Origin: Clostridia bacterium
GTDB taxonomy: Bacteria > Bacillota > Clostridia > UMGS1883
DNA length: 64,000 nucleotides
Assembly (NCBI GenBank): GCA_045660765.1
Contig: JAZREK010000026.1
Coordinates: 360-64,359, forward strand
Direction: 5' to 3'
The number at the start of each line of letters is the position of its first letter. Position 1 is the stretch's first letter. The notes beneath the pieces were generated by a model, which saw nothing but the letters and a program-made list of their open reading frames with translations, did not search any database and was not told the origin of the DNA. Positions 1,293-42,556 of the stretch are shown here, piece after piece. The position numbers and the translations under genes are program-made.

Positions 1293-1326
1293 TAAAATCT
1301 TCCATTCTCATCTCGGCAATTCGCAA

Positions 1327-1369
1327 TAAAAAAGCCGTTTGCAATTCATACTACAAACGGCTTTTTTTA
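1327..1369. terminator. Rho-independent terminator hairpin (AAAGCCGTTTG / CAAACGGCTTT) flanked by A and T runs
   Basis: Perfect 11-bp stem directly after the stop of the 1367..1984 gene; U-tract on the minus-strand reading. Confidence 0.7.
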
Positions 1370-1984
1370 ACCTTGAAAATCAAGGTTTTCTTCATTTTTA
1401 TACGCTATTACCTTTGCCGGCACACCGCCCACAATAGCGTTTTCCGGGACATCTTTTATAACAACAGCTCCTGCTGCGGCAAGGCTGTTTTTATGCATAG
1501 TCACATCGCCAAGAACTTTTGCTCCGCATGTTACGGAAACATTGTCCTCGAGCACGGGAGAAAGCTCTCCCTTGAATCCGATAGTTACCTGCTGATATAT
1601 TCGGCAGTTCTTACCAATTTTCTTTGCACTTATAATAGTGGAAAACCCATGCTGTATATACAATCCACCACCTATTTCAACAGTGTTTATGTAAAGGCTG
1701 TCCAATGGTTTCCAAAATACTCTTCCAAGCGCGTAATGTATCATCGTTACAATCGAGCGAGTCGGATTTTTCAAACGATGCAGTATAAGATTACGAAACT
1801 CTTTCTTATATGTCATATACCAGTTAAGAGATTTGAAAAGTCCCATATTTTCACCATTTATCTCGTTCCATCTTGTAATGTCTTCACAAATCAGTTTTTT
1901 ATGCGGAGAACAAAGCGCACACAAATAAACCACAAGCGTTCTCGGATAGTTTATAACCGCAAATACTCTTTTTAACTTTTTCAT
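1367..1984 (-). CDS. Hexapeptide-repeat (LbH) acetyltransferase, CysE/WbbJ-like; polysaccharide O-acetyltransferase
   Basis: C-terminal hexapeptide repeats (GENVSVTCGAKVLGDVTMHKNSLAAAGAVVIKDVPENAIVGGVPAKVI); first gene of a polysaccharide locus. Confidence 0.7.
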   Translation of the reverse strand: MKKLKRVFAVINYPRTLVVYLCALCSPHKKLICEDITRWNEINGENMGLFKSLNWYMTYKKEFRNLILHRLKNPTRSIVTMIHYALGRVFWKPLDSLYINTVEIGGGLYIQHGFSTIISAKKIGKNCRIYQQVTIGFKGELSPVLEDNVSVTCGAKVLGDVTMHKNSLAAAGAVVIKDVPENAIVGGVPAKVIAYKNEENLDFQG

Positions 1985-1985
1985 T

Positions 1986-2984
1986 TTACTTTTTCCCTTT
2001 CAACGCTTTATATGTTTTGGCAGGAAAAAAGAAGAAATCCAAAAACTTGATTTTCTTTGCAATCTGTGATGCCAAAACTGAAAATACGATTCCACACACA
2101 GTTCCCAGGGCAACATGTATCCACCACTGCGTCACGTTCACACGAAGAAGAAGGATTCTTACACCTGCAGTAAATATTGTGTGGAGCAGGTACGTTTGGA
2201 AAGAATACTTGTTCATAAATCCAAGGAAAGTGGATACTAATTTACAATTCTGCAACAAGGAAATAAACATTATACTTGAATAAATTCCAAGCAGTATCAT
2301 AAATTCTTTAACAAACGTAGTTTCTATTTTGTCTAACGATACAAAAATAACTCCGGCCACTATATGCGTGAACACGAATATCCATTTTGCCCAGGTGGGA
2401 GGATTTGATATTTTTTTAAAGCCAACAGATGTTCCTACACCAAAAGCAAGTGCAGAAGAAAAAACAGTTCCTAAAAAGCCGAGAGAACCTCCGCAAAGAG
2501 GAACTATATATCCTGTCAGTACAACGATAAGTGTAATTTGCCAATTTTTAATTAGACCAGAAAAAACAGTCCATATTACAAACAAAAAGAAAAGTGCATA
2601 TAAAAACCAATATTGAGCAACGGGAGCTTTCCATATATAGAGTATATCAGAAACCTTGAACTCTGTGTTCACGCCTCCTACAAAGCTGTTTATCAAAATA
2701 TACACAACCGAAAAAGTTAAGTAAGGAACTCCGAGATTCAAAAGTTTATGCAGTATGAATCCCGATTTTGTTTTTTTGCCTTTCCACTCCCCTGTTTCTC
2801 TATATACAACACCACTCAAAAACAAGAAAAGTGCAACATGAAAAGACCATATGAATTTTTCCATACCTTCAAAAAATTGTGGAATGTTTATTTCGGCAAG
2901 TCTTATTCCCATAATAACATGACCGAAAAGCACCAGAAAACACGCGTAGCCTTTCAACTTGTCAACAAGAACATTTCTTTCCAT
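1986..2984 (-). CDS. Acyltransferase family 3 (OafA/OatA-like) integral membrane O-acyltransferase
   Basis: ~10 TM helices and an N-terminal motif typical of acyl_transf_3. Confidence 0.7.
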   Translation of the reverse strand: MERNVLVDKLKGYACFLVLFGHVIMGIRLAEINIPQFFEGMEKFIWSFHVALFLFLSGVVYRETGEWKGKKTKSGFILHKLLNLGVPYLTFSVVYILINSFVGGVNTEFKVSDILYIWKAPVAQYWFLYALFFLFVIWTVFSGLIKNWQITLIVVLTGYIVPLCGGSLGFLGTVFSSALAFGVGTSVGFKKISNPPTWAKWIFVFTHIVAGVIFVSLDKIETTFVKEFMILLGIYSSIMFISLLQNCKLVSTFLGFMNKYSFQTYLLHTIFTAGVRILLLRVNVTQWWIHVALGTVCGIVFSVLASQIAKKIKFLDFFFFPAKTYKALKGKK

Positions 2985-3006
2985 ATTACACCTCCTAAGC
3001 TAAATT

Positions 3007-3930
3007 TCAGTCTTTTTTGCTTTTACAGGATGTCGATACAATGTACTTAGGTCTTCCCTTTATTTCCTCATAAATACGAGCAACGTAATACCCGATTATG
3101 CCAAGACTTATCATCATTATACTACCGATAAAAATAAGGATAATGATAACCGTTGTCATACCTTCAAGCGCACGTCCACTGATTTTATCAATAAGCGCCC
3201 AAACGCCAAAAATCACAGTTAGTATAAGCATTATCAGTCCCAGCACTGTTACGATTTGCATTGGAGCAGTTGAATAGGCGGAAATATTTGAGATGGCGTA
3301 TTTCAATAGACCTTTGGTAGACCATTTTGAAACACCTTCCTGCCTTTCATTCACCTCAAACTCAACTGTTGCCTTGTTGTAACCTACCCAAAACGAAATT
3401 GCTCTGAAAAAGCCTTTTTTCTCGGGGATACGATTAAGTATATCTACTACTTTGCGGTCAAGGAGTTTAAAATCCGAAGCGTTTGACATATCAAAACCAA
3501 CAACTTTGCTTATAATGGAGTAGAAGCTCTTTGCAGCCCAGCCACGGAATTTACCTTCGTCGCCTCGAGAAATCTTTATTCCTTCAACTATTTCGTATCC
3601 TTCCTGCCACAGACGATACATTTCAACAATTTTCTCCGGGGGATGCTGAAGGTCACAATCAATTACGACAACACAGTCGCCTACTGCACCTGCCAGACCT
3701 GCAGAAATGGCTGCTTCCTTTCCGAAATTTCTAGAAAAATGAAGTCCTGCTATGTTATTTTCTGTATCTGTGAGAGATTTGATTTTTTTATATGTATTGT
3801 CAGTTGAACCGTCGTCAATAAAAATAATTTCATTTTCAATATCAGCATTTTTTAAAATTTCAGATATTGTATGATAAGCTCGTTCAACAGACTCTTCCTC
3901 GTTATATGCGGGAATGATTACGGACAGCAT
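3007..3930 (-). CDS. gtrB: GT2 polyprenyl-phosphate glycosyltransferase, GtrB/DPM1-like (N-terminal GT-A domain plus two C-terminal TM helices)
   Basis: MLSVIIPAYNEEESV...IFIDDGSTDNT...DCDLQHPPE motifs; C-terminal TM helices typical of GtrB/ArnC. Confidence 0.7.
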   Translation of the reverse strand: MLSVIIPAYNEEESVERAYHTISEILKNADIENEIIFIDDGSTDNTYKKIKSLTDTENNIAGLHFSRNFGKEAAISAGLAGAVGDCVVVIDCDLQHPPEKIVEMYRLWQEGYEIVEGIKISRGDEGKFRGWAAKSFYSIISKVVGFDMSNASDFKLLDRKVVDILNRIPEKKGFFRAISFWVGYNKATVEFEVNERQEGVSKWSTKGLLKYAISNISAYSTAPMQIVTVLGLIMLILTVIFGVWALIDKISGRALEGMTTVIIILIFIGSIMMISLGIIGYYVARIYEEIKGRPKYIVSTSCKSKKD

Positions 3931-5307
3931 TTAAACACCTCCTGTGTTTTCGTCGAACAATTTTTCAAGCTTTGTCACCGGCATTGGTTTGTAGTAATAA
4001 TAACCCTGAAGCATATCACAACCAGCTCTTATTACCGCTTTTTCTTGTTCTTTTGTTTCAATTCCTTCACACAATGTCTTGAATCCAATATCCTTAGATG
4101 TACGAATAATGTTTTTCAAAATGATGAATCCAGTATCAGTTGTGGCATTTTGCGTTATTTTTTTATCAATTTTCACGGTTGTGATATCAAGATTCTGCAA
4201 ATCGCCAAAAGTTGTATAACCACTTCCAAAGTCATCGAGTAAAATTGATATTCCCTTTTCTTTAAGGATTGACAGATTTTTTATCATCTGTTTTCTGGCT
4301 TCACCCACTATATTTTTATCCTCAAGAATTTCTATTGCTACACAAGAAAAAGCAACTTCGTATTTTTGTGCAATTGCAATTATTTTTTCGGCAAACTCCG
4401 GTTCACACAATGTTGTTCTGGAGAAGTTTATGGTATATTTGTACTTTTCGCGTTGGAGTTTGTCGTTAGCAATCCATTTGCAATTTTTCTCAAAAATATA
4501 ATAATCAAACTTATCGTTAAGTCCTACTGAATTCAGTGCGGATAAAAAACTTCTGGGAGTAAGAACGCCGTCGCTTTCCGAATTAAGACGAGACAGAACC
4601 TCGGCACCTATTATTTTTTTGGTTCGCGCATCCAGGACTGGCTGATACTCGAGGAAAAAGCGGTTATTGTCAATTTCACGCTCTATATTGTTCTCGATTT
4701 TAATTTTTTTCTCAAGCTCTTTGCCGCTGCTGACATCCCACTGCTCATAGGATATTTTTTTATTTTTCGCAAGCATACATGCCTGTTTCGCACGTCCTAT
4801 TGCCTCGTCAAACGACACTTGTGTACCAAGTGCAAAATAAGAACCCGTTTTCAATCCAACAACACTCAGCGCATTATATTTCAAAAATATTTTATTAAGT
4901 TCTGATATACTTTCTTCAACGGTTTTGCGCGCAGTTTCAGGCTCCCATTTTGCGAGCACTACGAAATTTTTGTCTCCGTAAGAAGAAATCCAGCTTTCTT
5001 CCTCGGAAAAAGAATTAAGCAAAGTGCGTTTTATTTCGAAAAAAACTTCTGAAGTTTCTTCCTCGCTATACAAATGGCGGAAATTGTCCAAAGATACATT
5101 AATATACAAAACACATCTGTTTTCGCGCAATTTGCCTGACTTTTCAAACTGATTTTCCATTTTGCTTATGCTTGTAAATTCTTTCTCGTCATTGCCTGTT
5201 GCTGTTTTTACTCCACGCATAGCAAAATATATACCGATTGCAGTAATTAAAACAAAGCACAGTATGAAAATCGTTATAATTATGTACGGATATTCAAAAA
5301 GTTGCAT
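3931..5307 (-). CDS. Membrane-anchored c-di-GMP phosphodiesterase: TM, degenerate GGDEF-like domain, EAL domain
   Basis: N-terminal TM helix. The middle region has the GGDEF fold signature but a degenerate motif (SYGDKNF). The EAL domain has the EYQPV...EVLSR...DDFGSGYT...EGIET motifs. Confidence 0.75.
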   Translation of the reverse strand: MQLFEYPYIIITIFILCFVLITAIGIYFAMRGVKTATGNDEKEFTSISKMENQFEKSGKLRENRCVLYINVSLDNFRHLYSEEETSEVFFEIKRTLLNSFSEEESWISSYGDKNFVVLAKWEPETARKTVEESISELNKIFLKYNALSVVGLKTGSYFALGTQVSFDEAIGRAKQACMLAKNKKISYEQWDVSSGKELEKKIKIENNIEREIDNNRFFLEYQPVLDARTKKIIGAEVLSRLNSESDGVLTPRSFLSALNSVGLNDKFDYYIFEKNCKWIANDKLQREKYKYTINFSRTTLCEPEFAEKIIAIAQKYEVAFSCVAIEILEDKNIVGEARKQMIKNLSILKEKGISILLDDFGSGYTTFGDLQNLDITTVKIDKKITQNATTDTGFIILKNIIRTSKDIGFKTLCEGIETKEQEKAVIRAGCDMLQGYYYYKPMPVTKLEKLFDENTGGV

Positions 5308-5324
5308 ACATTAAGCTCCTAAAT

Positions 5325-6404
5325 TTATCTTTTTGAAAACGTTGGAAATTCCAATGTTCCACCTGATTGCATAAGGCCGATTTTATTCGCGGCATCTATG
5401 CACTTATTGCCGTCACGGCGAGCTCTTTTCTTGCGGTCAGGAATTTCCTTCATAAGAAAAGGTATCCCAAACGAAAGCATAGCTTTTACAAGGTCGCTCT
5501 TTTTAAGGCCTCTTCTCTTGTATTCTGCTAAAATTTCAAACATTGCGTAGTTAAGTGCCTCGTCAGTAAAAGCTTTGGTTTTTTTATTAACTGATTTCAG
5601 CCACTTGTAAAATTCGCAGAATTTATTTACATCTTTATTATCTCGGAAATAAACCCCTTTTATATAAAACGCTTCCTGCTCGCTATCCATTGGAGCAAGC
5701 AGTTCTGCCATATATTTCTTCTGAATTGCAACAACCTCTCTATACTGCTTTCCAAGTGTTGTTTCGGTAATTTGTTTGTCGTGCAGGCGGTATATCATAA
5801 GGTATTCAGACATAATTTCAATCTTTTGTCCAGAAAGAACAAACCTTGTCCAAAGCTCCATATCCTCGGTACAGGTGAAGGTTTTATCGTACCCAAGATT
5901 TCTTATTACGTCCGCCTTTGCAATAATCCCCGGATGAAGAATCGGGTTGGTAACTAAAAGCAACGCTTTGAGTGATTCATTATCACTTTTACCCCCGCAT
6001 CCACCCGAAGAGATAACTCCATTTTTAAGAGTCATAAATCTGCACGAAGACAATGCAACATCAGAATTTTCTTCCATAAAGGCGTATTGTTTTTCAAGCC
6101 TGTCAGGAAGGCAGATGTCATCGGCATCCATTCGTGCGATATACTTACCCTGTGCAAATGTCATCGCTCTGTTAAGTGATGAAGGAAGCCTTAAATTAAC
6201 CTCGTTGGGATATACTTTTACACGTGCATCTTTTAATGCGAATTTTTCAAGAATTTCTCCTGTTGAATCGGTGGAGCAATCGTTAATAACTATAAGTTCC
6301 CAATCGGTAAATCTTTGCTTTAAAACACTTTCAATTGCTTCTTCAAGATACTCTTCACCGTTATATACACTCATAATCAATGATATTTCAGGTGCTTTAT
6401 TCAT
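5325..6404 (-). CDS. Glycosyltransferase family 2
   Basis: ISLIMSVYNGEEYL...VINDCSTD...DADD motifs. Confidence 0.75.
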   Translation of the reverse strand: MNKAPEISLIMSVYNGEEYLEEAIESVLKQRFTDWELIVINDCSTDSTGEILEKFALKDARVKVYPNEVNLRLPSSLNRAMTFAQGKYIARMDADDICLPDRLEKQYAFMEENSDVALSSCRFMTLKNGVISSGGCGGKSDNESLKALLLVTNPILHPGIIAKADVIRNLGYDKTFTCTEDMELWTRFVLSGQKIEIMSEYLMIYRLHDKQITETTLGKQYREVVAIQKKYMAELLAPMDSEQEAFYIKGVYFRDNKDVNKFCEFYKWLKSVNKKTKAFTDEALNYAMFEILAEYKRRGLKKSDLVKAMLSFGIPFLMKEIPDRKKRARRDGNKCIDAANKIGLMQSGGTLEFPTFSKR

Positions 6405-7426
6405 CTTTTACCACCCCTTCTTATTTTTTTAATCTGCTTGCATAAAAACAAAAAATAAAATGTCAGGCGAATCATATTTCTCTTCATCAGGAAAAGACTG
6501 ATACGCGTTTTGATTGTTATATTTTCAAAATCAGCCTTCTTTATCTCTTCTTTATGCACGGATTCTGTTATAAGCTTTTTTAGTTCATTTATAGAGCCGA
6601 AATGGTTCCCTTCTGCGGCTGCCGCCAAAATAGCAAAGCACATAAAGAAGGAATATCGGGAAATCTGTTTGGAAAAATCGCCCGGCTTTTTTATGTCAAG
6701 ATTTCTCAATCCGATGATTGTATCGGCTATTTGTGTTATCTGTGCTGTTTTGAAATTCGTTGTAAGAGAATCGTTTCGTACAGTATACAGATATATAGGT
6801 TTTTTACTCATATAAACTGTATCTGAATCCAGATAGCAAGGAGTGGTACAGCTTACATCCTCGCCTTGTGAAATTTTAGTGTTTACAATAAGCTGATACT
6901 TTGTTGCAAGTTCTCTTTTTATAGCTTTTCCCCATAAAAAGTAGAAAAGGTTTTTCATATCCTTGTTAGACAGAAGATTCGGATAAATCTTTTTCTCCAT
7001 ATCTTGTTTAGTATATAATCCCTCATCAACAAGGTCTTCAACAACCTCGCCTACAACTCCGTCAATACAGCGTTTGTGCGAAAACGAAACGATATCGGGG
7101 CTGTGCTTTTTTATAATTTCGTATGCGCTTTCAAGTGCATCAGGCAAAACAGCGTCGTCTCCGTCAAGATGGAATACATAATCGCCGACAGCCTCCTTTA
7201 TTCCCGCCTGTCTTGCACTTACAAGGCCGCCATTCTCTTTATGAATGACCTTAATTCTTTTATCCTTTGCGGCGTATTCATCACAAATTGTGCCACAATT
7301 ATCCGGAGATCCGTCATCCACCAATATAAGCTCATAATCTGCAAAGGACTGTGCAAGCACACTGTCAATACATCTTGTGAGGTATTTTTCAATATTGTAT
7401 ATTGGAACGATTACTGAAAACAACAT
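6401..7426 (-). CDS. Glycosyltransferase family 2
   Basis: FSVIVPIYNIEKYL...LVDDGSPD...DGDD motifs; 4-nt overlap with the upstream gene. Confidence 0.75.
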   Translation of the reverse strand: MLFSVIVPIYNIEKYLTRCIDSVLAQSFADYELILVDDGSPDNCGTICDEYAAKDKRIKVIHKENGGLVSARQAGIKEAVGDYVFHLDGDDAVLPDALESAYEIIKKHSPDIVSFSHKRCIDGVVGEVVEDLVDEGLYTKQDMEKKIYPNLLSNKDMKNLFYFLWGKAIKRELATKYQLIVNTKISQGEDVSCTTPCYLDSDTVYMSKKPIYLYTVRNDSLTTNFKTAQITQIADTIIGLRNLDIKKPGDFSKQISRYSFFMCFAILAAAAEGNHFGSINELKKLITESVHKEEIKKADFENITIKTRISLFLMKRNMIRLTFYFLFLCKQIKKIRRGGKR

Positions 7427-7437
7427 ACTATTAACTC

Positions 7438-8502
7438 CTATTTTGCTCTGATTTCCACCATGATTTTTTGCATAAAGTAGAGCTTGTATTTCATAGCAAA
7501 TGCAAATGCAGCCTGCTTTTTAGGCAATTTATGCCACGGATATGAATTTAAAGTTTTTGTGATTTTTTCGCTTGCACAAATTTTTTCAAGTCTTTCACGA
7601 AGTGCTCTATATCCTGTCTTTTGTTCGCGCGCATACATGATTTCCTGCGAACATAAAATTCTGCCGTATCCTTGAATAAGTCTGTCCAGATATAGCGCAT
7701 ACTCTTCTTTTTTTAGCACTTCTTTGATATGTTCTTCAATCTCAGATAAAAAGATTAAGACTTTTTCAAAACGGTCACTTTTGTAGGATTTAGAAAATGA
7801 TTCATCATTTCTTCTGTAACGATAGAATGTGCCGGGAATTCCCACCGCTTTTTTTGTATACTTGATGTAGTCTACCATAAAGATGGCATCCTCGCTCATC
7901 ACTTTGCGTTCGGACAAAAATCTGACTTTTGCATCATTAAGCAAAGAGCGTCTGAAGATATTTTTGCATACACTAACTCCATAGCGACTATCATCAGGTT
8001 CGTCGGGTAATGCACCAACTACTCCTAAAAGAAGCGGTTTTATTTCTGTATTCTCGAAAATCGTTTCTTTGTCAAAATAATTTTTCTCGGTGTATTCGCC
8101 TTCTTTACTGAAGGTATTTCCACCCACAAAACTGATTCCGGACATAACAAGATCGGCATCATTCTTATTGGCTGCATCATAAAGTTTTTCATACATTTGG
8201 GGAGCAACAAAATCGTCCGAATCGACAAATCCCACATACTCTCCGCTCGAAGCATCAACACCGCAATTTCTTGCGATACCTTGTCCCTCGTTAATTTTAT
8301 GTATAACCTTTATACGCTCATCATTTTTTGCAATTTCATCACACAAAAGAGCGCACTCCTCTTTGGAGCCATCGTCAATTATAATGATTTCAATTTCCTC
8401 AAGTGTCTGTGCGGTTAAGGAATCAATACATTGTTTTAGGTATTTTTCTGTATTATATACGGGTACGACAATGCTCACTTTTGGTGATGTCATTCTTTTC
8501 AC
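7438..8502 (-). CDS. Glycosyltransferase family 2
   Basis: VSIVVPVYNTEKYL...IIDDGS...DSDD motifs. Confidence 0.75.
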   Translation of the reverse strand: MKRMTSPKVSIVVPVYNTEKYLKQCIDSLTAQTLEEIEIIIIDDGSKEECALLCDEIAKNDERIKVIHKINEGQGIARNCGVDASSGEYVGFVDSDDFVAPQMYEKLYDAANKNDADLVMSGISFVGGNTFSKEGEYTEKNYFDKETIFENTEIKPLLLGVVGALPDEPDDSRYGVSVCKNIFRRSLLNDAKVRFLSERKVMSEDAIFMVDYIKYTKKAVGIPGTFYRYRRNDESFSKSYKSDRFEKVLIFLSEIEEHIKEVLKKEEYALYLDRLIQGYGRILCSQEIMYAREQKTGYRALRERLEKICASEKITKTLNSYPWHKLPKKQAAFAFAMKYKLYFMQKIMVEIRAK

Positions 8503-11011: not shown

Positions 11012-11041
11012 ACGTCTCTTGCCCTCCTTTCAGGTTTTAAA

Positions 11042-12916: not shown

Positions 12917-12943
12917 TTTTTACCCTCCTGTAATATTTTGTGT

Positions 12944-14302: not shown

Positions 14303-14324
14303 CTATCATTCACTCCTTTCAAAT

Positions 14325-15296: not shown

Positions 15297-15315
15297 ATAA
15301 TTAACTACCTTTCGT

Positions 15316-16446: not shown

Positions 16447-16472
16447 AGCTACATCTCCATTCGTAAAATCGG

Positions 16473-17153: not shown

Positions 17154-17155
17154 TT

Positions 17156-18019: not shown

Positions 18020-18024
18020 ATTAC

Positions 18025-19557
18025 TTACCTCTTATCTCCCAACTTTATAACAATTGTATTGTCAACTACAGTGATTGAATCTTTCTCCGGCCAAACACCC
18101 ATAGAGTCAATATCTGCAATCTCAATTATTCCTTGTTTATCTTTATGGGTAAGGAATTTGTATTTTTTTCCGCAGTAGTCATTCAACGCGCTGCACAAAA
18201 CACTTTGTCCCACAATTTCATCATCAGCACGCAATATGTAACCGTCTGTCGCACCTGTGAGATCAGGCGGAAGATTCACGCTGTAATCTTCGCTGTCGTC
18301 AACCGCGCCAACAACTGCTATACTGTCACATTTATCTGCGCCATCGGTCTGTTCAATTCTGTCAGCGATTCGGATAAGCATACCGTAAGACTTTTCATAC
18401 GCCATATTAAGTTTATGATAACCTACATTGGCGATAATAACATAATTGAAAATAAGTACTGATGCAATACCGAGTATTGTCCATGATTTTGCTGCATTAG
18501 CCTTTTCATACTGCAATATAAGGAATAAATAATATACCAAATATCCCATTTTCATAAGATTATGATAATCTATACCGCTGTTTATGAAAGTAAGAACGCT
18601 TGCTCCAATCGGTAAAAAAACAACATAAGCAATAAGAAGCAGAATTTTTGAAATGTTCAATCTGTTTTTTATTATATCTGCCAGATAGAAAATGATAGTT
18701 GCGGCAAAAACAATACAGTTAATTATGGAAAACGAATTAACACCATTTGAAAAGTCAAAGAAATACGATGTGAATAATTTCTTTATCCAATAAAGCGATT
18801 CCAATATATTAAGCCCATCAAGAGATGTTGCATTTCCAAACCCCTGATAATCAAGAAGCTGTGTATTTGTAACAAGGCGGATAACTGTAAGAAGCAGATA
18901 ATAAAGTGCCATTCCGCAAGCGCCTGTCAGTAAGAACTTAAGGCTTTTGCAAATCGACTGCTTTGTATTTTCCTTGTAGATAAGCTCAAGTATAAGATGC
19001 AAAAGCAAAAGCATTATGGTAACGGTTATGTATGCCTGATAAATCCCTGTTGAAAAAGTGATAAGCATTGCAGCAATTATGTAGTTTGGCTTATCTTTTG
19101 TAATAAGCATTGCTGCGATGCAAGAAAGAAGAAAAGAAAGCGCATATCCATCCGCTACGTAGTTATACATCATAACAGATGTTACCGTTGGAAATGTCGC
19201 AACTAACGCACCTATAAGTGCCGCAGTTATATTTTTTCTAACATCAAGCATTTTACAGATACATACTGCACCAAATGCATGGAATATAATTGCAAGGAGA
19301 CCTGCAACCCAAGGCAAATCATAAAATGAACTCGGCGTGCACGCTACAGGAAGGAACCATCTTCCCATTGCAATCATATTTTGTGAATCATATCTGAAAA
19401 CAAGGCTGTCCCAATTAGGAATCCAGCTTGTAATCTTGTACATATGAGCGACAAATCCCATGATGAGTGCAGAGAAAAAACAAATTTTCCACTGTGGTAA
19501 TATATTCTTTTTGATTTTTCCAATTATTTGTTCAGGCAAAGTTACCACTCCAACCAC
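18025..19557 (-). CDS. Polytopic membrane protein (~12 TM) with C-terminal extracytoplasmic domain; putative GT-C-type glycosyltransferase (GtrC-like role)
   Basis: Hydrophobic profile and soluble C-terminal ~110 aa; lies in the same locus as gtrA and gtrB-like genes. The family assignment is an inference. Confidence 0.4.
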   Translation of the reverse strand: MVGVVTLPEQIIGKIKKNILPQWKICFFSALIMGFVAHMYKITSWIPNWDSLVFRYDSQNMIAMGRWFLPVACTPSSFYDLPWVAGLLAIIFHAFGAVCICKMLDVRKNITAALIGALVATFPTVTSVMMYNYVADGYALSFLLSCIAAMLITKDKPNYIIAAMLITFSTGIYQAYITVTIMLLLLHLILELIYKENTKQSICKSLKFLLTGACGMALYYLLLTVIRLVTNTQLLDYQGFGNATSLDGLNILESLYWIKKLFTSYFFDFSNGVNSFSIINCIVFAATIIFYLADIIKNRLNISKILLLIAYVVFLPIGASVLTFINSGIDYHNLMKMGYLVYYLFLILQYEKANAAKSWTILGIASVLIFNYVIIANVGYHKLNMAYEKSYGMLIRIADRIEQTDGADKCDSIAVVGAVDDSEDYSVNLPPDLTGATDGYILRADDEIVGQSVLCSALNDYCGKKYKFLTHKDKQGIIEIADIDSMGVWPEKDSITVVDNTIVIKLGDKR

Positions 19558-20276
19558 TTGAATTTGTGTAAAAACTTACCGTAAAGTTTGTTATATAATT
19601 TAACACCGATAATTCGTTTTATTCGCGTCGTCCTTTTCGTTACATCGGATGTCCACGAAGCCGAGTAATGATGTATTGAATACGTATTTTCTGTTATGGT
19701 CTTTTCCCCTGTATAATAATCCATTGGGCAAAGATAATCCTGCGGAAGAAAAACCACATCCATAAAAGTCTGATTAGTTACAGATACATCCATTCCAAGT
19801 CTTTTTAGTGCGTCTGTATTCCTGTCGGGACATGGAGTAAGGTCGTAGTTTCCGTCTTCTAAAACAAATGGGATGTCATCATAATCTTTCAAAAATTCTT
19901 CAACGATTTTATTCCCTTTTTCAGCACCGAACCCAAGTCCAGTTGCAACGATTCCTTTTTCATCAAACCCCATAAACCCACTATTTTCAAGTAAGGTGTC
20001 AATTGGTTTTATAATCTCTACATCAGTATCTAAATATATGCCACCGTTTTCGTAAATTATTTTAAGCCTTGCAACATCACTTACAAACGCCCACTTTCCT
20101 GCTTCATAAGCTTCACGCATATAGCGATTCTGCGCAAGGTCGAAGTTTTCTTCATTCCAACAGATTATTTCATAATCAGGACAATATTTTTTCCAGCTTT
20201 TAATACACTTTTTGGCGAGTTTGGGCATTTCGCCTTTACCGAACCAACAATAGTGAATCACTTTAGGAATACTCAT
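19542..20276 (-). CDS. GT32-family glycosyltransferase (DXD 'Gly_transf_sug' type)
   Basis: VIHYCWFGKGEMP...YLDTDVE motif. Confidence 0.65.
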   Translation of the reverse strand: MSIPKVIHYCWFGKGEMPKLAKKCIKSWKKYCPDYEIICWNEENFDLAQNRYMREAYEAGKWAFVSDVARLKIIYENGGIYLDTDVEIIKPIDTLLENSGFMGFDEKGIVATGLGFGAEKGNKIVEEFLKDYDDIPFVLEDGNYDLTPCPDRNTDALKRLGMDVSVTNQTFMDVVFLPQDYLCPMDYYTGEKTITENTYSIHHYSASWTSDVTKRTTRIKRIIGVKLYNKLYGKFLHKFKWLEW

Positions 20277-21781
20277 GCTTTATTCCTCCATAATTCAAGC
20301 AAGTTTTTGAATGTGCCCTTGAAAAATACGAAATTGACAACAATATACATCGGCACAATCCAAAGTGAATGGAGTATTCCTTTTGCCAAAAGATCAACAA
20401 AAGAAACTCCGCTGAAACTATCTACAAAAAAGATTCCCATTACAAGAGCAAAAAGTGCACCGTTAACTATCCAAAGCTTATATGTATTAAAAATACCGCG
20501 AGCAAGCACTTTTCGGTTTGAATAATAAATTATCATTGCCCCTCGGTACAACAGAGCTACGATTGTACCTAAAATAGCACCGCAGATTCCCCATTTGAGA
20601 ATTGAAACTATTGAAACGGTAATATTTATAACCATTTCCCAGATTGCATGGGAGCGTGTTTCATCAAATTTTCCTGAAAATTCAACTACATGATTTGATG
20701 GAAGCTTTCCGTTTGACAAAAGATTCATTATGACAAATAGGAAAACCAGATAAACATTAGTATAGTTAGCATCATTTATTCCTTTTGTGTAAATCTGAAT
20801 AAGCGGTAACAGAAAAACTGCCATAAGAGTATAAATAACAAAAGTAGCCATTATATAAAAAGTTTCATATGCGTTGTAAACCTTTGAAAACTTTTCTTTA
20901 TCAGTGTGAAACATCTGACCAAGCGCAAAACTGAAACCCGAAGTTATACTCGTAATAAATGTCTGAACCTGAGAAAAGAATATATTGTAAATTGCATAAA
21001 CACTTACTACTTTAAAGTCACACAAAAACGACAAAAGCAAAACATCGGTATTATTGAAAATCATTCCTGAAAACTGATGAACAAGAACCGACTTTCTTTG
21101 AGAAATTGCCTCAAAATCAGGTTCTGCCTTACAGTTAAGCCACTTATACCTTCGTTTTGCACTGATATATACATACCCAAGTTGTAAAAGTGACAATATA
21201 CAATATACAAGCTGAATCAACAAAAGGCTGTCCGTAAGCACTAGTACAAGTATTTTAGCAACGTTAGACAAAAGCTGAAGAACTATTTCCGAATTTGTGA
21301 TAACGTATTTTCTGCCATCAACTTCCAACAGGATTCTGTATTTAGTTTGTACGAAATAACTGAAAAGTGCAGGCAGTGCAGTAAGAATAATAATCCAGAA
21401 AACAACGCCTGAATCCACTCCGGTAGGAATTATATACGCATACACTACTGCAATTAAAAGAACTATCGCTGTATAGAGAATACCTATTTTTAAATAGTAA
21501 CTGTGGGTTGCTGATATGATGGCACTTACCTTGTCGTGATCCTTTTCAGCAACAGGTTTATAAAGAGCCTGCGTAGTAGCAAGCCCCACGCCTGCTTCAA
21601 GCAGGAACATATAAACAAAAATCTGTTTTATGGTAGATAAAACACCATTAACCTCTGAACCAAAATTTTCAAGATAGAGTCTGGGAATAAGGAAACTCAG
21701 AACAATTAAAATAACCTGATACAAAAAACCCGATAACAAATTATATTTTATTCTGTTATCTTTTGTCTGCATCCTGAGCAC
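20273..21781 (-). CDS. wzx: Wzx-like oligosaccharide flippase (MOP superfamily)
   Basis: ~14 TM helices; polysaccharide_synt-type N-terminus. Confidence 0.7.
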   Translation of the reverse strand: MLRMQTKDNRIKYNLLSGFLYQVILIVLSFLIPRLYLENFGSEVNGVLSTIKQIFVYMFLLEAGVGLATTQALYKPVAEKDHDKVSAIISATHSYYLKIGILYTAIVLLIAVVYAYIIPTGVDSGVVFWIIILTALPALFSYFVQTKYRILLEVDGRKYVITNSEIVLQLLSNVAKILVLVLTDSLLLIQLVYCILSLLQLGYVYISAKRRYKWLNCKAEPDFEAISQRKSVLVHQFSGMIFNNTDVLLLSFLCDFKVVSVYAIYNIFFSQVQTFITSITSGFSFALGQMFHTDKEKFSKVYNAYETFYIMATFVIYTLMAVFLLPLIQIYTKGINDANYTNVYLVFLFVIMNLLSNGKLPSNHVVEFSGKFDETRSHAIWEMVINITVSIVSILKWGICGAILGTIVALLYRGAMIIYYSNRKVLARGIFNTYKLWIVNGALFALVMGIFFVDSFSGVSFVDLLAKGILHSLWIVPMYIVVNFVFFKGTFKNLLELWRNKA

Positions 21782-21808
21782 CTTCCTTTCACAGATTTTT
21801 TAGTGTAA

Positions 21809-22213
21809 TTAGTTTTTGTCTTCTTTTTTCTCCAGAAATATTTTTCGTGTAACGAAATTATACATCGGTACAAATAACATTGCAAATGCCTTGACCCAAA
21901 GATAGTAAACGGTAAAAAATTCTGTACCGACCCACATTATAAGCTGATTTAATCCTAATCCACCAAGGCTTAAAACGACGAATAAAATAAACTCTTTTGT
22001 TTTACTTTCGCCATCGCTTTTAAAAACAAAAAGCATGCTTAATATGTAATTCACAATAACCGATGCTGTAAAAGCGAGCGCTGATGCAACCAGAACATCT
22101 ATATTTATGACTTCTTTAAGAAACATCAAAACGCCCAGATCAATCAGTGTTGCAATTACACCGACAACACCGAATTTAATCAGTTGTATTACGAGTTTTT
22201 TCACACTTTTCAC
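21809..22213 (-). CDS. gtrA: GtrA-family small membrane protein (polyprenyl-P-sugar flippase component)
   Basis: 134 aa, 4 TM, FGVVGVIATLIDLGVL...VVNYILSMLFVF...FVTRKIF signature. Confidence 0.75.
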   Translation of the reverse strand: MKSVKKLVIQLIKFGVVGVIATLIDLGVLMFLKEVINIDVLVASALAFTASVIVNYILSMLFVFKSDGESKTKEFILFVVLSLGGLGLNQLIMWVGTEFFTVYYLWVKAFAMLFVPMYNFVTRKIFLEKKEDKN

Positions 22214-22216
22214 CTT

Positions 22217-23059
22217 TTAAAAATTCAACATATACTCTTTTGCAAAGCTTTCCGCGTGCGCTTCGGGAAGCGGTTTGGAATAATACCAGCCCTGGATATA
22301 GTCACATTCACTTTTGGAAATCAAATCGTTTTGCGTTTCTGTTTCAACACCTTCGCAAACTGCCTTCAGATTGAGATTATGCGCAAGAGAGATAATTCCC
22401 ATTAAAAGTTTCTTCCCTTTGCATTCGTTAGCAAGAAGAAGAATGTCACGATCAATCTTTACAACGTCGATAGGATATTCGCACAAGCTTATAAACGAGG
22501 TGTATCCACTTCCGATATCATCAAGTGCAATAGGAAATCCAAGCTCTTTCACCTGCAGCATATTGCTCATAGCAAGTTTTAAGTTCTTTTCAATTGAATC
22601 TTCAGTGATTTCTATCAGAAGCTTACTTCTGTCAAACTCGTATTTGTCTGAAATACTCTTTATTGTTTCTACAAAATTCTTTTCGGATATAGTAAGTCTT
22701 GTAAAATTGCAAGAGATTGAAATTTCATTAAATTCAGTGTCCTTCCACTCTACGAGCTTCTTGCAGGCAAGCTCGAACATATGATAGTCGAGTCGTGCAA
22801 TAATCGAGTGCTTCTCCATTACGCCGATATATTTTACCGGCGGAATAATCTCTCCCGCTGAATTTTCCCATCTTGACAACGCTTCTGCAGAAGCAATTTT
22901 CTTAGTCTTGTTGTCAACAATAAACTGGAGATACATTTTAAACTCTCCATTTTCAAAACCTTCTTCTATTTTTCGAAGCAGGTTTTTTTCGTATGATGAC
23001 TCTTTCATACCTGATAAAAGTGCAGTTATTTTCCCAGCGAATTTATTACTCATTTTCAT
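22217..23059 (-). CDS. Stand-alone EAL-domain c-di-GMP phosphodiesterase
   Basis: EALSRW, DDIGSGYTS, EGVET, QGWYYSKP motifs. The ORF track starts at a GTG (23068); the ATG at 23059 or 23053 follows GAGGAAA. Confidence 0.75.
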   Translation of the reverse strand: MKMSNKFAGKITALLSGMKESSYEKNLLRKIEEGFENGEFKMYLQFIVDNKTKKIASAEALSRWENSAGEIIPPVKYIGVMEKHSIIARLDYHMFELACKKLVEWKDTEFNEISISCNFTRLTISEKNFVETIKSISDKYEFDRSKLLIEITEDSIEKNLKLAMSNMLQVKELGFPIALDDIGSGYTSFISLCEYPIDVVKIDRDILLLANECKGKKLLMGIISLAHNLNLKAVCEGVETETQNDLISKSECDYIQGWYYSKPLPEAHAESFAKEYMLNF

Positions 23060-23117
23060 TTTCCTCACTATCTTAATCTTTTTTGATTACATAATATGTG
23101 GGGTACTCTTTTTGTGC

Positions 23118-23174
23118 TAAAACAAAAGCTGCAATAACAAAAAGCCTTACCAAAGACTTTTAATCATTGCAGCT
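23118..23174 (-). terminator. Terminator/attenuator hairpin in the EAL leader (AGCUGCAAU...AUUGCAGCU followed by UUUUGUUUU)
   Basis: 9-bp stem with an internal AAAAG/CUUUU extension and a U-tract, ~60 nt upstream of the EAL start; likely the expression platform of the upstream aptamer. Confidence 0.5.
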
Positions 23175-23245
23175 GGACTGGCATAGTACTAAACCTTAGC
23201 CTCTTTGCTTTGCGTCGCCGACTTTCATCGGTTTTGCTAAATATT
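23165..23245 (-). ncRNA. Candidate c-di-GMP-I (GEMM) riboswitch aptamer in the 5' leader of the EAL gene
   Basis: Minus-strand leader reads UUUAGCAAAACCGAUGAAAGUCGGCGACGCAAAGC. Compared with the Vc2 GEMM-I core GGGCAAACCAUUCGAAAGAGUGGGACGCAAAGCC, it has the junction GCAAA, a GNRA-type hairpin (CCGA-UGAAAG-UCGG) and the ACGCAAAGC junction. I could not fold the second (receptor) helix convincingly by eye. Confidence 0.5.
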
Positions 23246-23257
23246 TGACTATTTGTC

Positions 23258-23286
23258 ATTATATTACAATGATGAGCTTTTGTCAA
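23258..23286 (-). promoter_or_regulatory. Sigma-A promoter TTGACA-17-TATAAT driving the riboswitch/EAL transcript
   Basis: Reverse complement reads TTGACAaaagctcatcattgtaaTATAAT, immediately after the stop of the DGC gene. Confidence 0.65.
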
Positions 23287-23292
23287 CAAAGT

Positions 23293-25584
23293 TTACTCTT
23301 TTGAGAAAACCCAAAGAGTGTCTGTTATTGATGAACCAATTTTATAAACACTCAAAGCAACAACTTCGTTGTTATTCTTTTTATACCTGATTTTCGGGAG
23401 CTTATTTTCAGTTAACTGTTTCTTTATAGCATCATAATTCAAAAAGCTTAACACCGATCTGTGGTAATCGGGGTTAACGGATTCTTCCACATACTTTGTA
23501 AAAAGTTTTGAATAGTGCTCCTCATCTTCGTTATATCCCAAATATGCAGGCATCAAAATGCGTTTTGCTTTATCGCTGTCAAGAGATACACGGTATATGC
23601 CGTTGTAATTTTCTTTAAGCATTGAAAGAAGTGTATCAATTTCAACTATTCCTGTTTTCAGCTGTACGTACTCTTCTCCAGAATTTATTGAATTTGTTTT
23701 CAATTCTTTATTCTGATAATACTGTGCTTTTGCTTCGTACATTCTCTTTTCAGCTTCACTTACCATTTCTTTAGTATTTGTGTTTTGGCTTCTGTAAGAT
23801 ATACCTGACGCAATGTGATATTCGCGCAGTTTAAGTTGTTCCTTTACAAGGTTTATACCTTTTTCAACTTCTCCCTGGTTAGAATTCTTGCAAAATACTA
23901 AAAATTCATCTCCACCCATTCGGTAGACCTTCTGTCCGTAAAACACTTCGCTTAAAGTATTTGCAATGTAGATTAACATTTCATCGCCTGCAGCATGTCC
24001 GTATTTATTGTTGCAAAGATGAAGTTCATTTACATCAATATAAATGCAAGAAAAGTTCAAAGGTTTCTCTTCATCAAAGTCTAAAATATCTTTATTGTAC
24101 AAGACGCGATTTCCAACTCCCGTAAGAGAATCAGTTGTTGCGACAAGTTCTGTATTGTCAAGATGCGTTTTGTTGTAAAGAGCCATTGAAAAACATGCAG
24201 AAATTTTTTCTGCAAGCATTCTTGCTCTGTCGCCGTGTTTTGAATTTATGGCAGCAAGAATTATCACATGGTTTCTATTGTTTATTGTGGCTGAAAAAGA
24301 AACCTCCTCCATGGTTTTCTCCTTCATAAACTTATAAAAAGAGGGATTTGTTCTGAGCATATGTTTGTTTGGCTTTACACACAGAACATTAACTGTTTTT
24401 CCATTAAGTTTATGATAGTCAAGCGCATAACGAATAAGTTCAGCTCTGAAATAATTTCTTTCTTTTTCCTCAAGTTCAATTTCATCAAACGTTGGCGTAA
24501 TATAGTGATAGGATCCGCCACTCGTGTCGAAGAATATGGTAGTTCTCGCACAGGCGAATTCGCAAAATATCTGTAAGGCATCAGCTATATTTTCTTTTCC
24601 GTCAATAGTTTCCAACAGTTCCTTTCTGATTTCAGATGCGCTCGCCGTTACAGCATTAAGACTTTTTTCGTTTTTCATTATAAGCAACAAATACAGCGCC
24701 ATAATTGCAACCAAAACAAAAAACGAAACAAGAAGCAACTGCGATGTTTTATGTGTTCCCACAAAAACCTGAGAATCATATCTTCCCAGGGCAATCATCC
24801 ACCCAAATTCCTCAATTGCGGAGTAGTGCAAAAGAAGGTTCTCGTTTTTATACTTTGACTCAAACTCGGTAAATCCCTTGTCGGTTTTTATAAAGGTTTC
24901 ATACGAATATCCTTTTTTGTACTTTCTATCTTCCAGGGCTGATATGTTTTCCAATTCATCTTGAATTGTATCTATAAGAATATCACCTGAATCTTTTTCA
25001 TAAATAAAAAGCTGGGCGTCAAGTTCCTGTACTAAATCAATATATCTTTTAGCGAGTTTTTCCGGTTTTATAGCACCGTACAATACAGCAACGATTTTTC
25101 CATCCACTATAATGGGAACAGCACTTCTTATAAGTACATAATCCTTATTGGTGATGTCTCCTATTTTCCCACTTATATATGCACGCTTATTTTTCTCTTC
25201 TTCAAACGAAAGAGCTCCATTGGTGTCAGAGGTCCCGGCCTTGGTTGAAAAAGTGTTGTCTGAATTCAATATTCCGATGTTTTCAATCATTCCTATCGGT
25301 TTGAAAGATTCAAACAAAAGGTCGTAATCTTCGCCGTCTTTATAGAGCTTCGCAGCAAAGTTTGCCATGGTCTCAAGATTTTCCCTGTCCGACGTTAATT
25401 GCAAAATAATATCGTCTTTAATCTGCTTGGTCTGGACGTGAAGATTTTCATATTCCTTTTCCTTTGCATCTGTATATAAATACGACAAAGCACCAAAAAA
25501 TACCGTACATAATAATATTACGGCTATTATTGTATAAAAGACGTTATGTTGCTTATGTTTTTTCATTCCGAACTTAGTTGCCAT
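23293..25584 (-). CDS. Sensor diguanylate cyclase: TM, ~250-aa extracytoplasmic sensor, TM, linker, GGDEF (intact motif), ~120-aa C-terminal uncharacterised domain
   Basis: Two TM helices flank a periplasmic-type domain. GGDEF domain has TDSLTGVGNRVLY...YIDVNELHLCNNKYGHAAGDEML...YRMGGDEFLVF, with the catalytic GGDEF intact. Extra C-terminal region has no recognisable motif. Confidence 0.8.
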   Translation of the reverse strand: MATKFGMKKHKQHNVFYTIIAVILLCTVFFGALSYLYTDAKEKEYENLHVQTKQIKDDIILQLTSDRENLETMANFAAKLYKDGEDYDLLFESFKPIGMIENIGILNSDNTFSTKAGTSDTNGALSFEEEKNKRAYISGKIGDITNKDYVLIRSAVPIIVDGKIVAVLYGAIKPEKLAKRYIDLVQELDAQLFIYEKDSGDILIDTIQDELENISALEDRKYKKGYSYETFIKTDKGFTEFESKYKNENLLLHYSAIEEFGWMIALGRYDSQVFVGTHKTSQLLLVSFFVLVAIMALYLLLIMKNEKSLNAVTASASEIRKELLETIDGKENIADALQIFCEFACARTTIFFDTSGGSYHYITPTFDEIELEEKERNYFRAELIRYALDYHKLNGKTVNVLCVKPNKHMLRTNPSFYKFMKEKTMEEVSFSATINNRNHVIILAAINSKHGDRARMLAEKISACFSMALYNKTHLDNTELVATTDSLTGVGNRVLYNKDILDFDEEKPLNFSCIYIDVNELHLCNNKYGHAAGDEMLIYIANTLSEVFYGQKVYRMGGDEFLVFCKNSNQGEVEKGINLVKEQLKLREYHIASGISYRSQNTNTKEMVSEAEKRMYEAKAQYYQNKELKTNSINSGEEYVQLKTGIVEIDTLLSMLKENYNGIYRVSLDSDKAKRILMPAYLGYNEDEEHYSKLFTKYVEESVNPDYHRSVLSFLNYDAIKKQLTENKLPKIRYKKNNNEVVALSVYKIGSSITDTLWVFSKE

Positions 25585-25630: not shown

Positions 25631-25659
25631 TCCATCAAAAATTATATCATATTTTTTCC
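25631..25659 (-). promoter_or_regulatory. Sigma-A promoter (TTGAAA-17-TATAAT) for the DGC gene
   Basis: Reverse complement reads TTGAAAcagaggaaaaaatatgaTATAAT, ~45 nt upstream of the ATG. Confidence 0.55.
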
Positions 25660-25700
25660 TCTGTTTCAATAATTTTTCTGTAAAAACCACTATTATTTCG

Positions 25701-42427: not shown

Positions 42428-42556
42428 TAGGTTTTTTAAATTTTTTCCCAGAATTTACATAGAAGATTTTCACCTTTTTTGCAGAATATTTTAGTGTGAG
42501 CCTGCAGGTCTGCGGCAGGTGTGAAATATTTTTGCGGACAGAAAGGTTTGAAAACT

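Follow-up and report, generated by a model that had tools for sequence, protein, structure and literature searches.

A c-di-GMP-I riboswitch heads a probable Wzx/Wzy-type polysaccharide operon in an uncultured gut or rumen Clostridium

Here, we report on a polysaccharide gene cluster in a 64,000-nucleotide stretch of DNA (the window) from an uncultured Clostridia bacterium (GTDB lineage Bacteria; Bacillota; Clostridia; UMGS1883; GenBank assembly GCA_045660765.1, contig JAZREK010000026.1, positions 360 to 64,359 of the forward strand). The ORF listing of the window has 21 open reading frames (ORFs) head to tail from 25584 to 1367, all on the minus strand. The first encodes a membrane sensor GGDEF protein; a 224-nt gap behind it houses a promoter, a cyclic di-GMP (c-di-GMP) riboswitch aptamer and a terminator hairpin. 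The locus as a whole is best explained, with a probability of roughly 70%, as a c-di-GMP riboswitch-gated operon of 20 genes and ~22 kb (about 23250 to 1326, minus strand) for a decorated heteropolysaccharide of the Wzx/Wzy type, with the sensor GGDEF gene directly upstream, in an uncultured gut or rumen Clostridium of, to judge from its relatives, an Oscillospirales-like lineage.

Products were assigned by Pfam and NCBIfam searches and by transmembrane (TM) prediction of the window proteins. Every gene class listed in a preliminary description of the locus, made from the letters and ORF translations, was also given by these searches; its labels "Wzx" and "polysaccharide co-polymerase (PCP)" were recognized by neither Pfam nor NCBIfam and needed other evidence. 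In transcription order, the genes begin with the 763-aa membrane sensor GGDEF protein, a probable diguanylate cyclase (23293 to 25584, minus strand, as for all genes below; Pfam GGDEF, 71 bits). The first gene past the riboswitch encodes a predicted stand-alone EAL phosphodiesterase (22217 to 23068; Pfam EAL, 194 bits). Its likely true start is the ATG at 23053, 8 nt past a GAGG, which gives 278 aa; the called GTG at 23068 sits within this likely Shine-Dalgarno sequence and has the worse spacing. There follow a GtrA-family flippase for polyprenyl-phosphate-sugar (21809 to 22213; Pfam GtrA_DPMS_TM [PF04138], 89 bits); orf502, a divergent Wzx/PST-type flippase candidate of 502 aa with ~11 TM helices and no direct family match (20273 to 21781); a GT32-type glycosyltransferase (19542 to 20276; Pfam Gly_transf_sug, 67 bits); a GtrC-like (GtrII-like) membrane glycosyltransferase with ~9 TM helices (18025 to 19557; Pfam Glucos_trans_II [PF14264], 162 bits); a YdjC-family carbohydrate deacetylase-like protein (17156 to 18019; Pfam YdjC, 131 bits); the initiating polyprenyl-phosphate sugar-1-phosphate transferase (16473 to 17153; Pfam Bac_transf, 216 bits; TIGR03025, 261 bits); and a GT4 glycosyltransferase with DUF1972 (15316 to 16446; Pfam).

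The middle of the operon holds a membrane-anchored metallophosphoesterase resembling YaeI and LpxG (14325 to 15296; Pfam Metallophos; NCBIfam YaeI and LpxG), the 452-aa protein orf452 with a TM-ectodomain-TM layout and no Pfam match, an unfused PCP-like paralog (12944 to 14302), and a 624-aa protein with a predicted PCP fold and a catalytically dead GGDEF domain (PCP-dGGDEF; 11042 to 12916; weak GGDEF match at the C terminus). Next come a candidate Wzy-type repeat-unit polymerase with ~10 to 11 TM helices (9707 to 11011; Pfam Wzy_C), a GT4 glycosyltransferase (8499 to 9710) and three GT2 glycosyltransferases (7438 to 8502, 6401 to 7426, and 5325 to 6404), these last four all named by Pfam. The operon ends with a predicted TM-degenerate GGDEF-EAL phosphodiesterase (dGGDEF-EAL; 3931 to 5307; Pfam EAL, 197 bits; GGDEF, 20 bits and under the cutoff), a GtrB-type polyprenyl-phosphate glycosyltransferase that is the fourth GT2 (3007 to 3930), an Acyl_transf_3 membrane O-acyltransferase (1986 to 2984; Pfam, 92 bits), and a probable hexapeptide-repeat acetyltransferase (1367 to 1984; Pfam Hexapep, 22 bits and under the cutoff; 69 to 74% identity in relatives).

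The locus had been described as uninterrupted on the minus strand, which is correct, and as having many 4-30-nt overlaps, which is not: five junctions overlap (by 4, 16, 4, 4, and 4 nt), 14 are gaps of 0 to 30 nt, and the 224-nt gap lies between genes 1 and 2. The operon promoter in that gap (TTGACA-17-TATAAT, 23258 to 23286, minus strand; 12/12 sigma-70 match) begins 7 nt past the cyclase stop codon and lies 10 nt 5' of the aptamer. The cyclase gene has a promoter-like site of its own (25641 to 25669, minus strand; 11/12 match, extended −10 TG), just 3' of the terminator of its upstream neighbor dtd (25748 to 25710). No terminator lies between the cyclase promoter and the riboswitch, so cyclase transcription would also feed into the riboswitch. 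The operon ends at an intrinsic terminator (1326 to 1363, minus strand; 16-bp hairpin plus U6, −23.4 kcal/mol, z −5.9), and the gene past it, for a signal-peptide protein, is preceded by a 12/12 promoter. With the dtd terminator and 11/12 promoter upstream and the strong terminator downstream, the unit has boundaries at both ends. Elsewhere inside the locus, promoter-like and terminator-like sites were no more frequent than in shuffled sequence, which bears out the claim that the only strong internal signals (the 12/12 promoter and a 21-bp hairpin with U tract) are at the cyclase/EAL junction.

The aptamer (23165 to 23248, minus strand) is a genuine c-di-GMP-I (GEMM-I) riboswitch, earlier listed as a candidate: it matched Rfam RF01051 over model positions 1 to 87 of 87 (57 bits against a gathering threshold of 35, E 1.7e-8) and was the sole Rfam match in the window; the L077 ortholog scored 63.9 bits. 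A GAAA loop and the CUAAGG...CUAUG receptor motif are seen in its sequence. An nhmmer search with the riboswitch region returned 6 loci and was superseded by a covariance model built from seven aligned orthologous leaders; this model recovered riboswitches in ten metagenome loci, giving a set of 17. Across the seven leaders, P2, P3, and the distal P3 stem covary: 20 pairs were 91% paired, 10 of them with compensatory changes, and the covariation score was matched by 0/500 shuffles, while slid control registers paired at 13 to 49% only. The 17 riboswitches fall into two sequence subtypes, AGCAAA...GACGC and GGUAAA...GGCAC. A partial match to the custom model was also seen between feoB and a LysM gene (42440 to 42492, minus strand; 21 bits, E 0.008); covering the first hairpin only and unreported by Rfam, it is probably due to chance.

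The expression platform is an intrinsic terminator (23118 to 23174, minus strand; −27.5 kcal/mol, z −5.15) made of a 21-bp hairpin (23174 to 23127) and UUUUGUUUU, the 5' arm of which starts inside the aptamer, in the P3 3' strand. In 17/17 riboswitches, a hairpin and U tract lie directly 3' of the aptamer, and the hairpin 5' arm (AGCUGCAAUGAU... or GGCCGCAA...) opens with the P3 3' strand; the arms covary (GCUGCAAU/AUUGCAGC, GCCGCAAC/GUUGCGGC, and GCUGCGAU/GUUGCGGC). Constrained folding of the window RNA gave −43.5 kcal/mol for the terminator fold and −33.5 kcal/mol with the aptamer enforced (a cost of 10 kcal/mol), and the enforced aptamer removed the 4 stem-base pairs next to the U tract. 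No third, anti-terminator element was found in the leader. This two-element overlap of aptamer and terminator points to an ON switch, because a ligand that holds the shared strand would keep the stem base beside the U tract from forming, and polymerase would read on; the platform thus fits ligand induction.

Conservation was scanned with one genome per species. Relatives were found in 166 genomes, and the best 80 were used as genome loci; these are uncultured Clostridia labeled Acutalibacteraceae, Oscillospiraceae, Eubacteriales, and similar, with goat, sheep, cattle, yak, water deer, and human gut as host sources. A second scan, centered on orf502 in metagenome contigs, added 47 metagenome loci. 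The core order (orf502, GT32, GtrC-like, YdjC, Bac_transf, GT4, Metallophos, orf452, PCP-dGGDEF, Wzy, GT4, GT2, GT2, GT2, dGGDEF-EAL, and, in parentheses, GtrB-like) was collinear in the 80 genome and 47 metagenome loci at 47 to 95% amino acid identity, which supports a single conserved gene cluster, as in the preliminary description. The dGGDEF-EAL gene was present in 65/80 genome loci and absent mostly where the contig stops short, and it and the PCP-dGGDEF gene always lay within the cluster. Because core genes are missing mostly at contig ends (the exceptions being Gtr/YdjC genes), these two internal c-di-GMP proteins belong to the core.

The genes around the core are more mobile. The cyclase adjoins the cluster in 23 loci that reach beyond it on that side. 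The order is cyclase, riboswitch, EAL, core in the window and L017; riboswitch, EAL, core in L016; riboswitch immediately before orf502 in L040, L043, and L050; cyclase, GtrA, core, EAL without a riboswitch in L049-type loci; and cyclase and riboswitch past the core in L077. All of these arrangements recurred in the orf502-centered metagenome scan, along with the ten further riboswitches. On this conserved order, the genes of the locus are functionally linked; cyclase, EAL, and riboswitch shift or drop out, and the riboswitch is a frequent but not an obligatory part. Six loci without a class I element had no riboswitch of any class, including class II, at Rfam gathering thresholds. In three relatives the cyclase stands directly before the EAL gene or operon and the gap holds no Rfam riboswitch (L098, 870 to 1101; L093, 5570 to 6001; L099, 3716 to 4332), so that regulation must differ there. 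In many relatives (L084, L085, L087, L088, L089, and others), an extra small gene separates EAL or GtrA from orf502 and lies ~500 nt upstream of the latter; its product is ~30 to 40% identical to the hexapeptide acetyltransferase of the window, which does not have this gene. A set of unrelated transcription units was rejected on the synteny and the lack of internal promoter or terminator signals, and a horizontally acquired, variable capsule island was rejected on the conservation of the whole glycosyltransferase set across species. The G+C content of 1001 to 26000 is 0.34 to 0.39 (one 1-kb bin, 0.41), slightly below the 0.39 to 0.44 of the housekeeping flanks; the locus is nonetheless conserved across species.

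The pathway is best read as Wzx/Wzy type, with the Wzx assignment as the weakest point. Its Pfam score makes the initiating transferase a secure call; its TIGR03025 score is just below the full-length cutoff because the protein is a short form. The putative Wzy is polytopic and conserved in position, and the orthologous position in the distant loci described below also carries Wzy_C. When orf502 was aligned with hhalign, it gave a weak match to Escherichia coli RfbX (E 0.029, N-terminal motif only) and no signal with E. coli WzxC; among its orthologs, PF01943 is present in one that is 80% identical, and two bear the name "polysaccharide biosynthesis C-terminal domain" (Polysacc_synt_C) protein. 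A synthase-dependent system was rejected, in line with the Wzx/Wzy pathway of the preliminary description, since no processive multi-TM GT2 synthase is among the products: TM helices are absent from the three central GT2 proteins, and the fourth, GtrB-like, has two at its C terminus. Pfam searches of the 21 products likewise found no bacterial tyrosine kinase (BY-kinase), no LCP ligase, and neither the P-loop kinase nor the PHP phosphatase that accompany PCP-2b proteins in CpsBCD-type systems.

The decoration genes include a complete GtrABC set: GtrA (89 bits), the GtrB-like protein, with 36% full-length identity to E. coli YfdH (a bactoprenol glucosyl transferase, the GtrB enzyme; E 3e-69), and the GtrC-like protein (162 bits). 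These three and YdjC are jointly absent in L017 and L052, which suggests that the Gtr genes and YdjC form a sub-module. YdjC would, in an Arn-like logic, deacetylate a polyprenyl-phosphate-linked sugar before transfer and so add an amino sugar to the polymer.

Genes for four c-di-GMP proteins lie scattered among the polysaccharide genes, as had been noted. In the 763-aa GGDEF protein, a ~250-aa outer domain is flanked by two TM helices. Aligned to DgcZ, the protein keeps RMGGDEF, the N of NN, and the guanine-contacting D (GHAAGD), and it has no RxxD. In diguanylate cyclases, the phosphate-binding residues are the lysine of FK and the arginine of GRN (named by PleD residue numbering). Eight orthologs keep the variant YIDVNELHxxNNKYGHAAGDEML...YRMGGDEF...MYEAKAxYYQNKE, and the protein probably represents a selected subfamily of active cyclases. 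Within residues ~520 to 620 of this subfamily, DVNELH..NN replaces DxDxFK..ND and AKAxYYQNKE replaces AKxxGRN; residues 622 to 763 form a ~140-aa C-terminal extension without a Pfam match. On inspection, both EAL proteins hold the full, established catalytic set of EAL enzymes, E(A/V)L-R, N, ExxE, DD, K, EG(V/I)E, and QG. In the stand-alone protein EAL-R, N, ExxE, DD, K, EGVE, and QG are all present; in the 3931-to-5307 protein EVL-R, N, ExxE, DDFG, K, EGIE, and QG are intact, its GGDEF motif reads YGDKNF, and it has one TM helix.

The fourth of these proteins, PCP-dGGDEF, has TM helices at ~6 to 34 and ~439 to 473 that flank a large extracytoplasmic domain. AlphaFold models built with distant homologs (pLDDT 83 at full length, 81 for residues 1 to 472) place a small alpha/beta base and then long antiparallel helices between TM1 and TM2, an arrangement that by these predictions is a PCP fold. 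The first 470 residues matched no sequence model in Pfam (to E 10, including Wzz, PF02706) or NCBIfam, and a PCP profile run against the PDB returned GGDEF domains only and no solved PCP; by sequence, the protein is not a member of the Wzz family. PCP proteins have a proline-rich motif before TM2; the sequence there is SSASVKPSINV, with one proline that is unconserved in the family consensus. The C-terminal domain has a GGDEF fold (best PDB matches, diguanylate cyclases) in which NGNGSF, or NGN(G)SF, replaces the active-site motif, and it is predicted to be unable to make c-di-GMP. The neighboring orf452 is 23% identical to the N-terminal 335 aa (E 2e-8), which makes it a paralog, and has a TM helix at both ends; aligned with ~450-aa representatives it was 14 to 19% identical, too little for the alignment to serve in modeling.

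The family is large. PCP-dGGDEF has >1,200 homologs, the best 120 of which are full length, at least 77% identical, and all from metagenomes or metagenome-assembled genomes. An exhaustive representative search gave 1,203 matches, with at least 139 clusters (50% identity) better than E 1e-30; one 90%-identity cluster has 8,740 members. The forms seen were ~600-aa fused proteins, ~450-aa unfused proteins, two proteins with an EAL domain (P0255 and P0267), and a 917-aa protein with Metallophos. In four distant loci (28 to 35% identity), the same trio stands in the order unfused PCP-like protein (416 to 443 aa, no Pfam match), PCP-dGGDEF, Metallophos (L129, 8683 to 12685; L132, 8764 to 12635; L133, 8709 to 12605; L134, 8704 to 12754), and in L134 the last two are fused in the one 917-aa protein. 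The trio lies directly past Wzy_C, or one glycosyltransferase gene downstream of it, in 3/4 of these loci; in L133, Wzy_C is close by on the opposite strand. Apart from the trio, these polysaccharide loci differ in make-up, and they encode Polysacc_synt, Bac_transf, and Glyphos_transf.

Because the trio sits by Wzy in such different loci, it looks like a general polymerization and chain-control module of Clostridial Wzy pathways that stands in place of CpsB/C/D, which are absent from the window locus. The third member, the metallophosphoesterase, has a K/R-rich N-terminal stretch before its one TM helix, and its catalytic domain is therefore predicted to face outward; we speculate that it may cleave the pyrophosphate link of lipid-bound polymer.

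For the locus as a whole, we propose the following sequence of events. The membrane sensor GGDEF protein would make c-di-GMP on an outside cue, and c-di-GMP on the nascent aptamer would hold the strand of the terminator stem base, allowing RNA polymerase to read through. The first product, the EAL phosphodiesterase, and the mid-operon membrane dGGDEF-EAL protein would provide built-in negative feedback and local clearance of the signal. The Bac_transf enzyme would begin each repeat unit, and six cytoplasmic glycosyltransferases would lengthen it; the divergent Wzx would then flip it for polymerization by Wzy, which would work with the two paralogous PCP-fold proteins and the outward-facing metallophosphoesterase. 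The GtrA/GtrB/GtrC set (probably with YdjC) and the two acyltransferases would decorate the polymer. The dead GGDEF domain, in the cytoplasmic place of the BY-kinase of Wzc, would most likely couple polymerization to the c-di-GMP network, through guanine-nucleotide binding or through contact with the cyclase or phosphodiesterases; this coupling is the least certain step.

A number of observations weigh against this reading, some directly and some through the alternatives they favor. The organism is uncultured. The Wzy match is weak and marginal (31.9 bits against a cutoff of 31.7), with TIGR04370 below its cutoff, and orf502 had no match in Pfam (to E 10), NCBIfam, or PDB sequence searches. 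In the DgcZ alignment, the cyclase has H for the FK lysine (LH) and Y for the GRN arginine (AQYY for xxGR), and the riboswitch is absent in several orthologous loci, where the cyclase directly precedes the operon. The preliminary description had called the system self-contained; that term is too strong for a system in which the cyclase deviates at two phosphate-binding positions and of which relatives lack the riboswitch, cyclase, or stand-alone EAL gene or have it in another place. Also among the points against are the lost residues of the dGGDEF domain: GKTN stands where the RxxD I-site should be, five residues upstream of the motif (RRSD of 4urs, RKSD of 6zxm), with FGK of this region invariant in the orthologs, and the phosphate- and metal-binding residues are gone, including the FK lysine. 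As judged from these residues, the domain lacks the defining feature of PelD-, PssE-, and YdaK-type receptors and cannot be called a receptor, as the preliminary description had done.

These losses feed the strongest alternative, in which c-di-GMP would act only through riboswitch transcription and its own turnover and the dGGDEF domain would be a nucleotide-blind structural or oligomerization module, a cytoplasmic ring in place of the BY-kinase. We take this as a serious possibility, though one we would bet against. It would account for the trio standing by Wzy in four distant loci with no GGDEF or EAL gene within 10 kb and, in L129, no riboswitch found by Rfam, a further point against c-di-GMP input. 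The motif GYNGxGQF is kept in relatives down to 28% identity, which suggests selection for a function other than canonical GGDEF chemistry. However, the guanine contacts N516 and D525 are kept without variation in the orthologs, P0255 and P0267 carry an EAL domain in place of dGGDEF, and the operon of PCP-dGGDEF here also holds a riboswitch and three c-di-GMP enzymes; as a receptor often senses the cell-wide pool, missing c-di-GMP neighbors are weak evidence. The distribution of the trio fits a general second-messenger input just as well as it fits a structural domain blind to nucleotides. More speculatively, and in our view possible but doubtful, the trio would be an undescribed, widespread Clostridial control module in which a guanine messenger or contact with GGDEF/EAL proteins sets co-polymerase assembly and chain length, replacing tyrosine phosphorylation; a pocket built on GYNGxGQF rather than an I-site would be used, and the phosphoesterase would release or process lipid-linked polymer.

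The product could instead be a constitutive cell-envelope glycopolymer, such as a secondary cell-wall or teichoic-like polysaccharide, that the c-di-GMP genes merely tune, and not a facultative biofilm matrix. All glycosyltransferases are conserved in order at 47 to 90% identity in many species, unlike those of hypervariable capsule loci; decoration of the Gtr type is a typical feature of wall polymers and O-antigens; and the distant trio loci encode Glyphos_transf, a teichoic-type enzyme. We nevertheless consider a wall polymer unlikely, as the locus has no Glyphos_transf and no LCP ligase for peptidoglycan attachment, and a terminator-based riboswitch at the start of the operon implies conditional expression.

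Two further alternatives concern the riboswitch. It might answer to 3'3'-cyclic GMP-AMP (cGAMP), or to both dinucleotides, rather than specifically to c-di-GMP. The GGDEF enzymes that make cGAMP (Hypr) have Ser or Thr at the position of the GD aspartate; the adjacent cyclase keeps the aspartate, and the window showed neither a CD-NTase nor a Hypr GGDEF gene. The position of Vc2 G20, which is G in the c-di-GMP-selective type, is A here (window 23238), in 5/7 of the closest riboswitch relatives, and in 6 of the 17 in all (the window and five close relatives). A further departure from the consensus is GCAA or GCGA 3' of P3 in 17/17, with one C, which may or may not be the counterpart of Vc2 C92, where the Rfam consensus gCC has two. 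G20A and natural A20 GEMM-I RNAs bind cGAMP, and several, one of them from Clostridium beijerinckii, are bispecific; the A20 RNAs retain c-di-GMP binding by way of a protonated adenine (PMC6140456). With G at position 20 in the other 11/17 orthologous riboswitches before the same operon, a cGAMP switch is quite improbable; the c-di-GMP gating named in the preliminary description is nonetheless weaker than stated there, the A20 variant being known to accept cGAMP too.

An OFF switch, at which c-di-GMP would repress and the EAL and polysaccharide genes would be on at low c-di-GMP, would draw on class I riboswitches of both polarities, which exist (PMC9262584 and PMC4933901), and on the 17/21 terminator pairs (a 17-bp hairpin) that can still form with the aptamer enforced, so that ON behavior rests on stem-base and U-tract geometry and on kinetics; but it is hardly to be expected where an anti-terminator is missing, where the pairs beside the U tract are those shared with the aptamer in 17/17 and in compact type-B platforms make up about half of the outer stem, and where a cyclase lies upstream and matrix genes lie downstream.

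The reading at the level of the operon is well supported, and a receptor role of the dGGDEF domain is conjectural. Control of matrix polysaccharides by c-di-GMP is established for the synthase-dependent cellulose, Pel, alginate, poly-N-acetylglucosamine, and Listeria Pss systems; to our knowledge, there are few direct links to the Wzx/Wzy route, and examples from Gram-positive bacteria are scarce. The locus would be a compact, two-layer case: an RNA switch gating a 22-kb operon whose first product degrades the signal, and a co-polymerase with a GGDEF-fold domain where the tyrosine kinase would stand. The PCP-dGGDEF family is common in gut and rumen metagenomes, and its ectodomain has no Pfam model. 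Should the dGGDEF domain sense a nucleotide, it would be a new type of receptor without RxxD and would bring a new mode of chain-length regulation to abundant, uncultured, fiber-degrading Clostridia.

Among known systems, the Listeria monocytogenes pssA-E exopolysaccharide operon, which encodes the PssE receptor and whose polymer is induced by high c-di-GMP, is likewise a Firmicute operon encoding its own membrane-associated degenerate GGDEF protein (PMC4125290), and the preliminary description was fair in likening the two in logic and not in pathway. The pss cluster is short and synthase type, whereas this locus is Wzx/Wzy type with 20 genes; PssE binds c-di-GMP by an RxxD I-site, whereas the 624-aa protein has GKTN and a GGDEF domain fused to a PCP-fold co-polymerase; and riboswitch, cyclase, and two phosphodiesterases are added in the cluster here. 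PelD is a GAF-GGDEF I-site receptor and not a PCP, and Pel is synthase dependent. The Bacillus cereus pel operon is likewise a Gram-positive matrix polysaccharide system under c-di-GMP control that encodes a degenerate GGDEF membrane protein (PMC7112168, the abstract of which makes no mention of a riboswitch). Besides pathway, this locus departs from pss and Pel alike in its RNA sensor at the level of transcription, in the turnover enzymes within its operon, and in the fusion of an I-site-less GGDEF domain to a co-polymerase. The GtrABC/YfdGHI modules of O-antigen glucosylation have all three components found here; in those prophage cassettes they stand together, whereas here the three genes are dispersed in an exopolysaccharide operon, with a YdjC-like gene present or absent together with them. 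The Bc2 riboswitch, before a Bacillus thuringiensis collagen-adhesin gene, also joins a GEMM-I aptamer and an intrinsic terminator in a 5' leader, with a surface or adhesion function (PMC4933901). Relative to Bc2-like ON riboswitches as described there, this one heads a 22-kb polysaccharide operon with a phosphodiesterase as first gene, carries A in place of G20, and is present in some orthologous loci but not in others. Structurally closest to PCP-dGGDEF is Wzc (PCP-2a), with the kinase replaced: the cytoplasmic domain is a dead GGDEF fold and not the P-loop BY-kinase of Wzc and CpsC/CpsD (PCP-2b), there is no kinase, phosphotyrosine phosphatase, or Pfam Wzz match, and its partners would be a second PCP paralog, which is unfused, and a metallophosphoesterase predicted to face outward. 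No description of a PCP/Wzz-GGDEF fusion was found in the literature searched, and a co-polymerase with a dead c-di-GMP-cyclase domain in the place of the tyrosine kinase is apparently undescribed.

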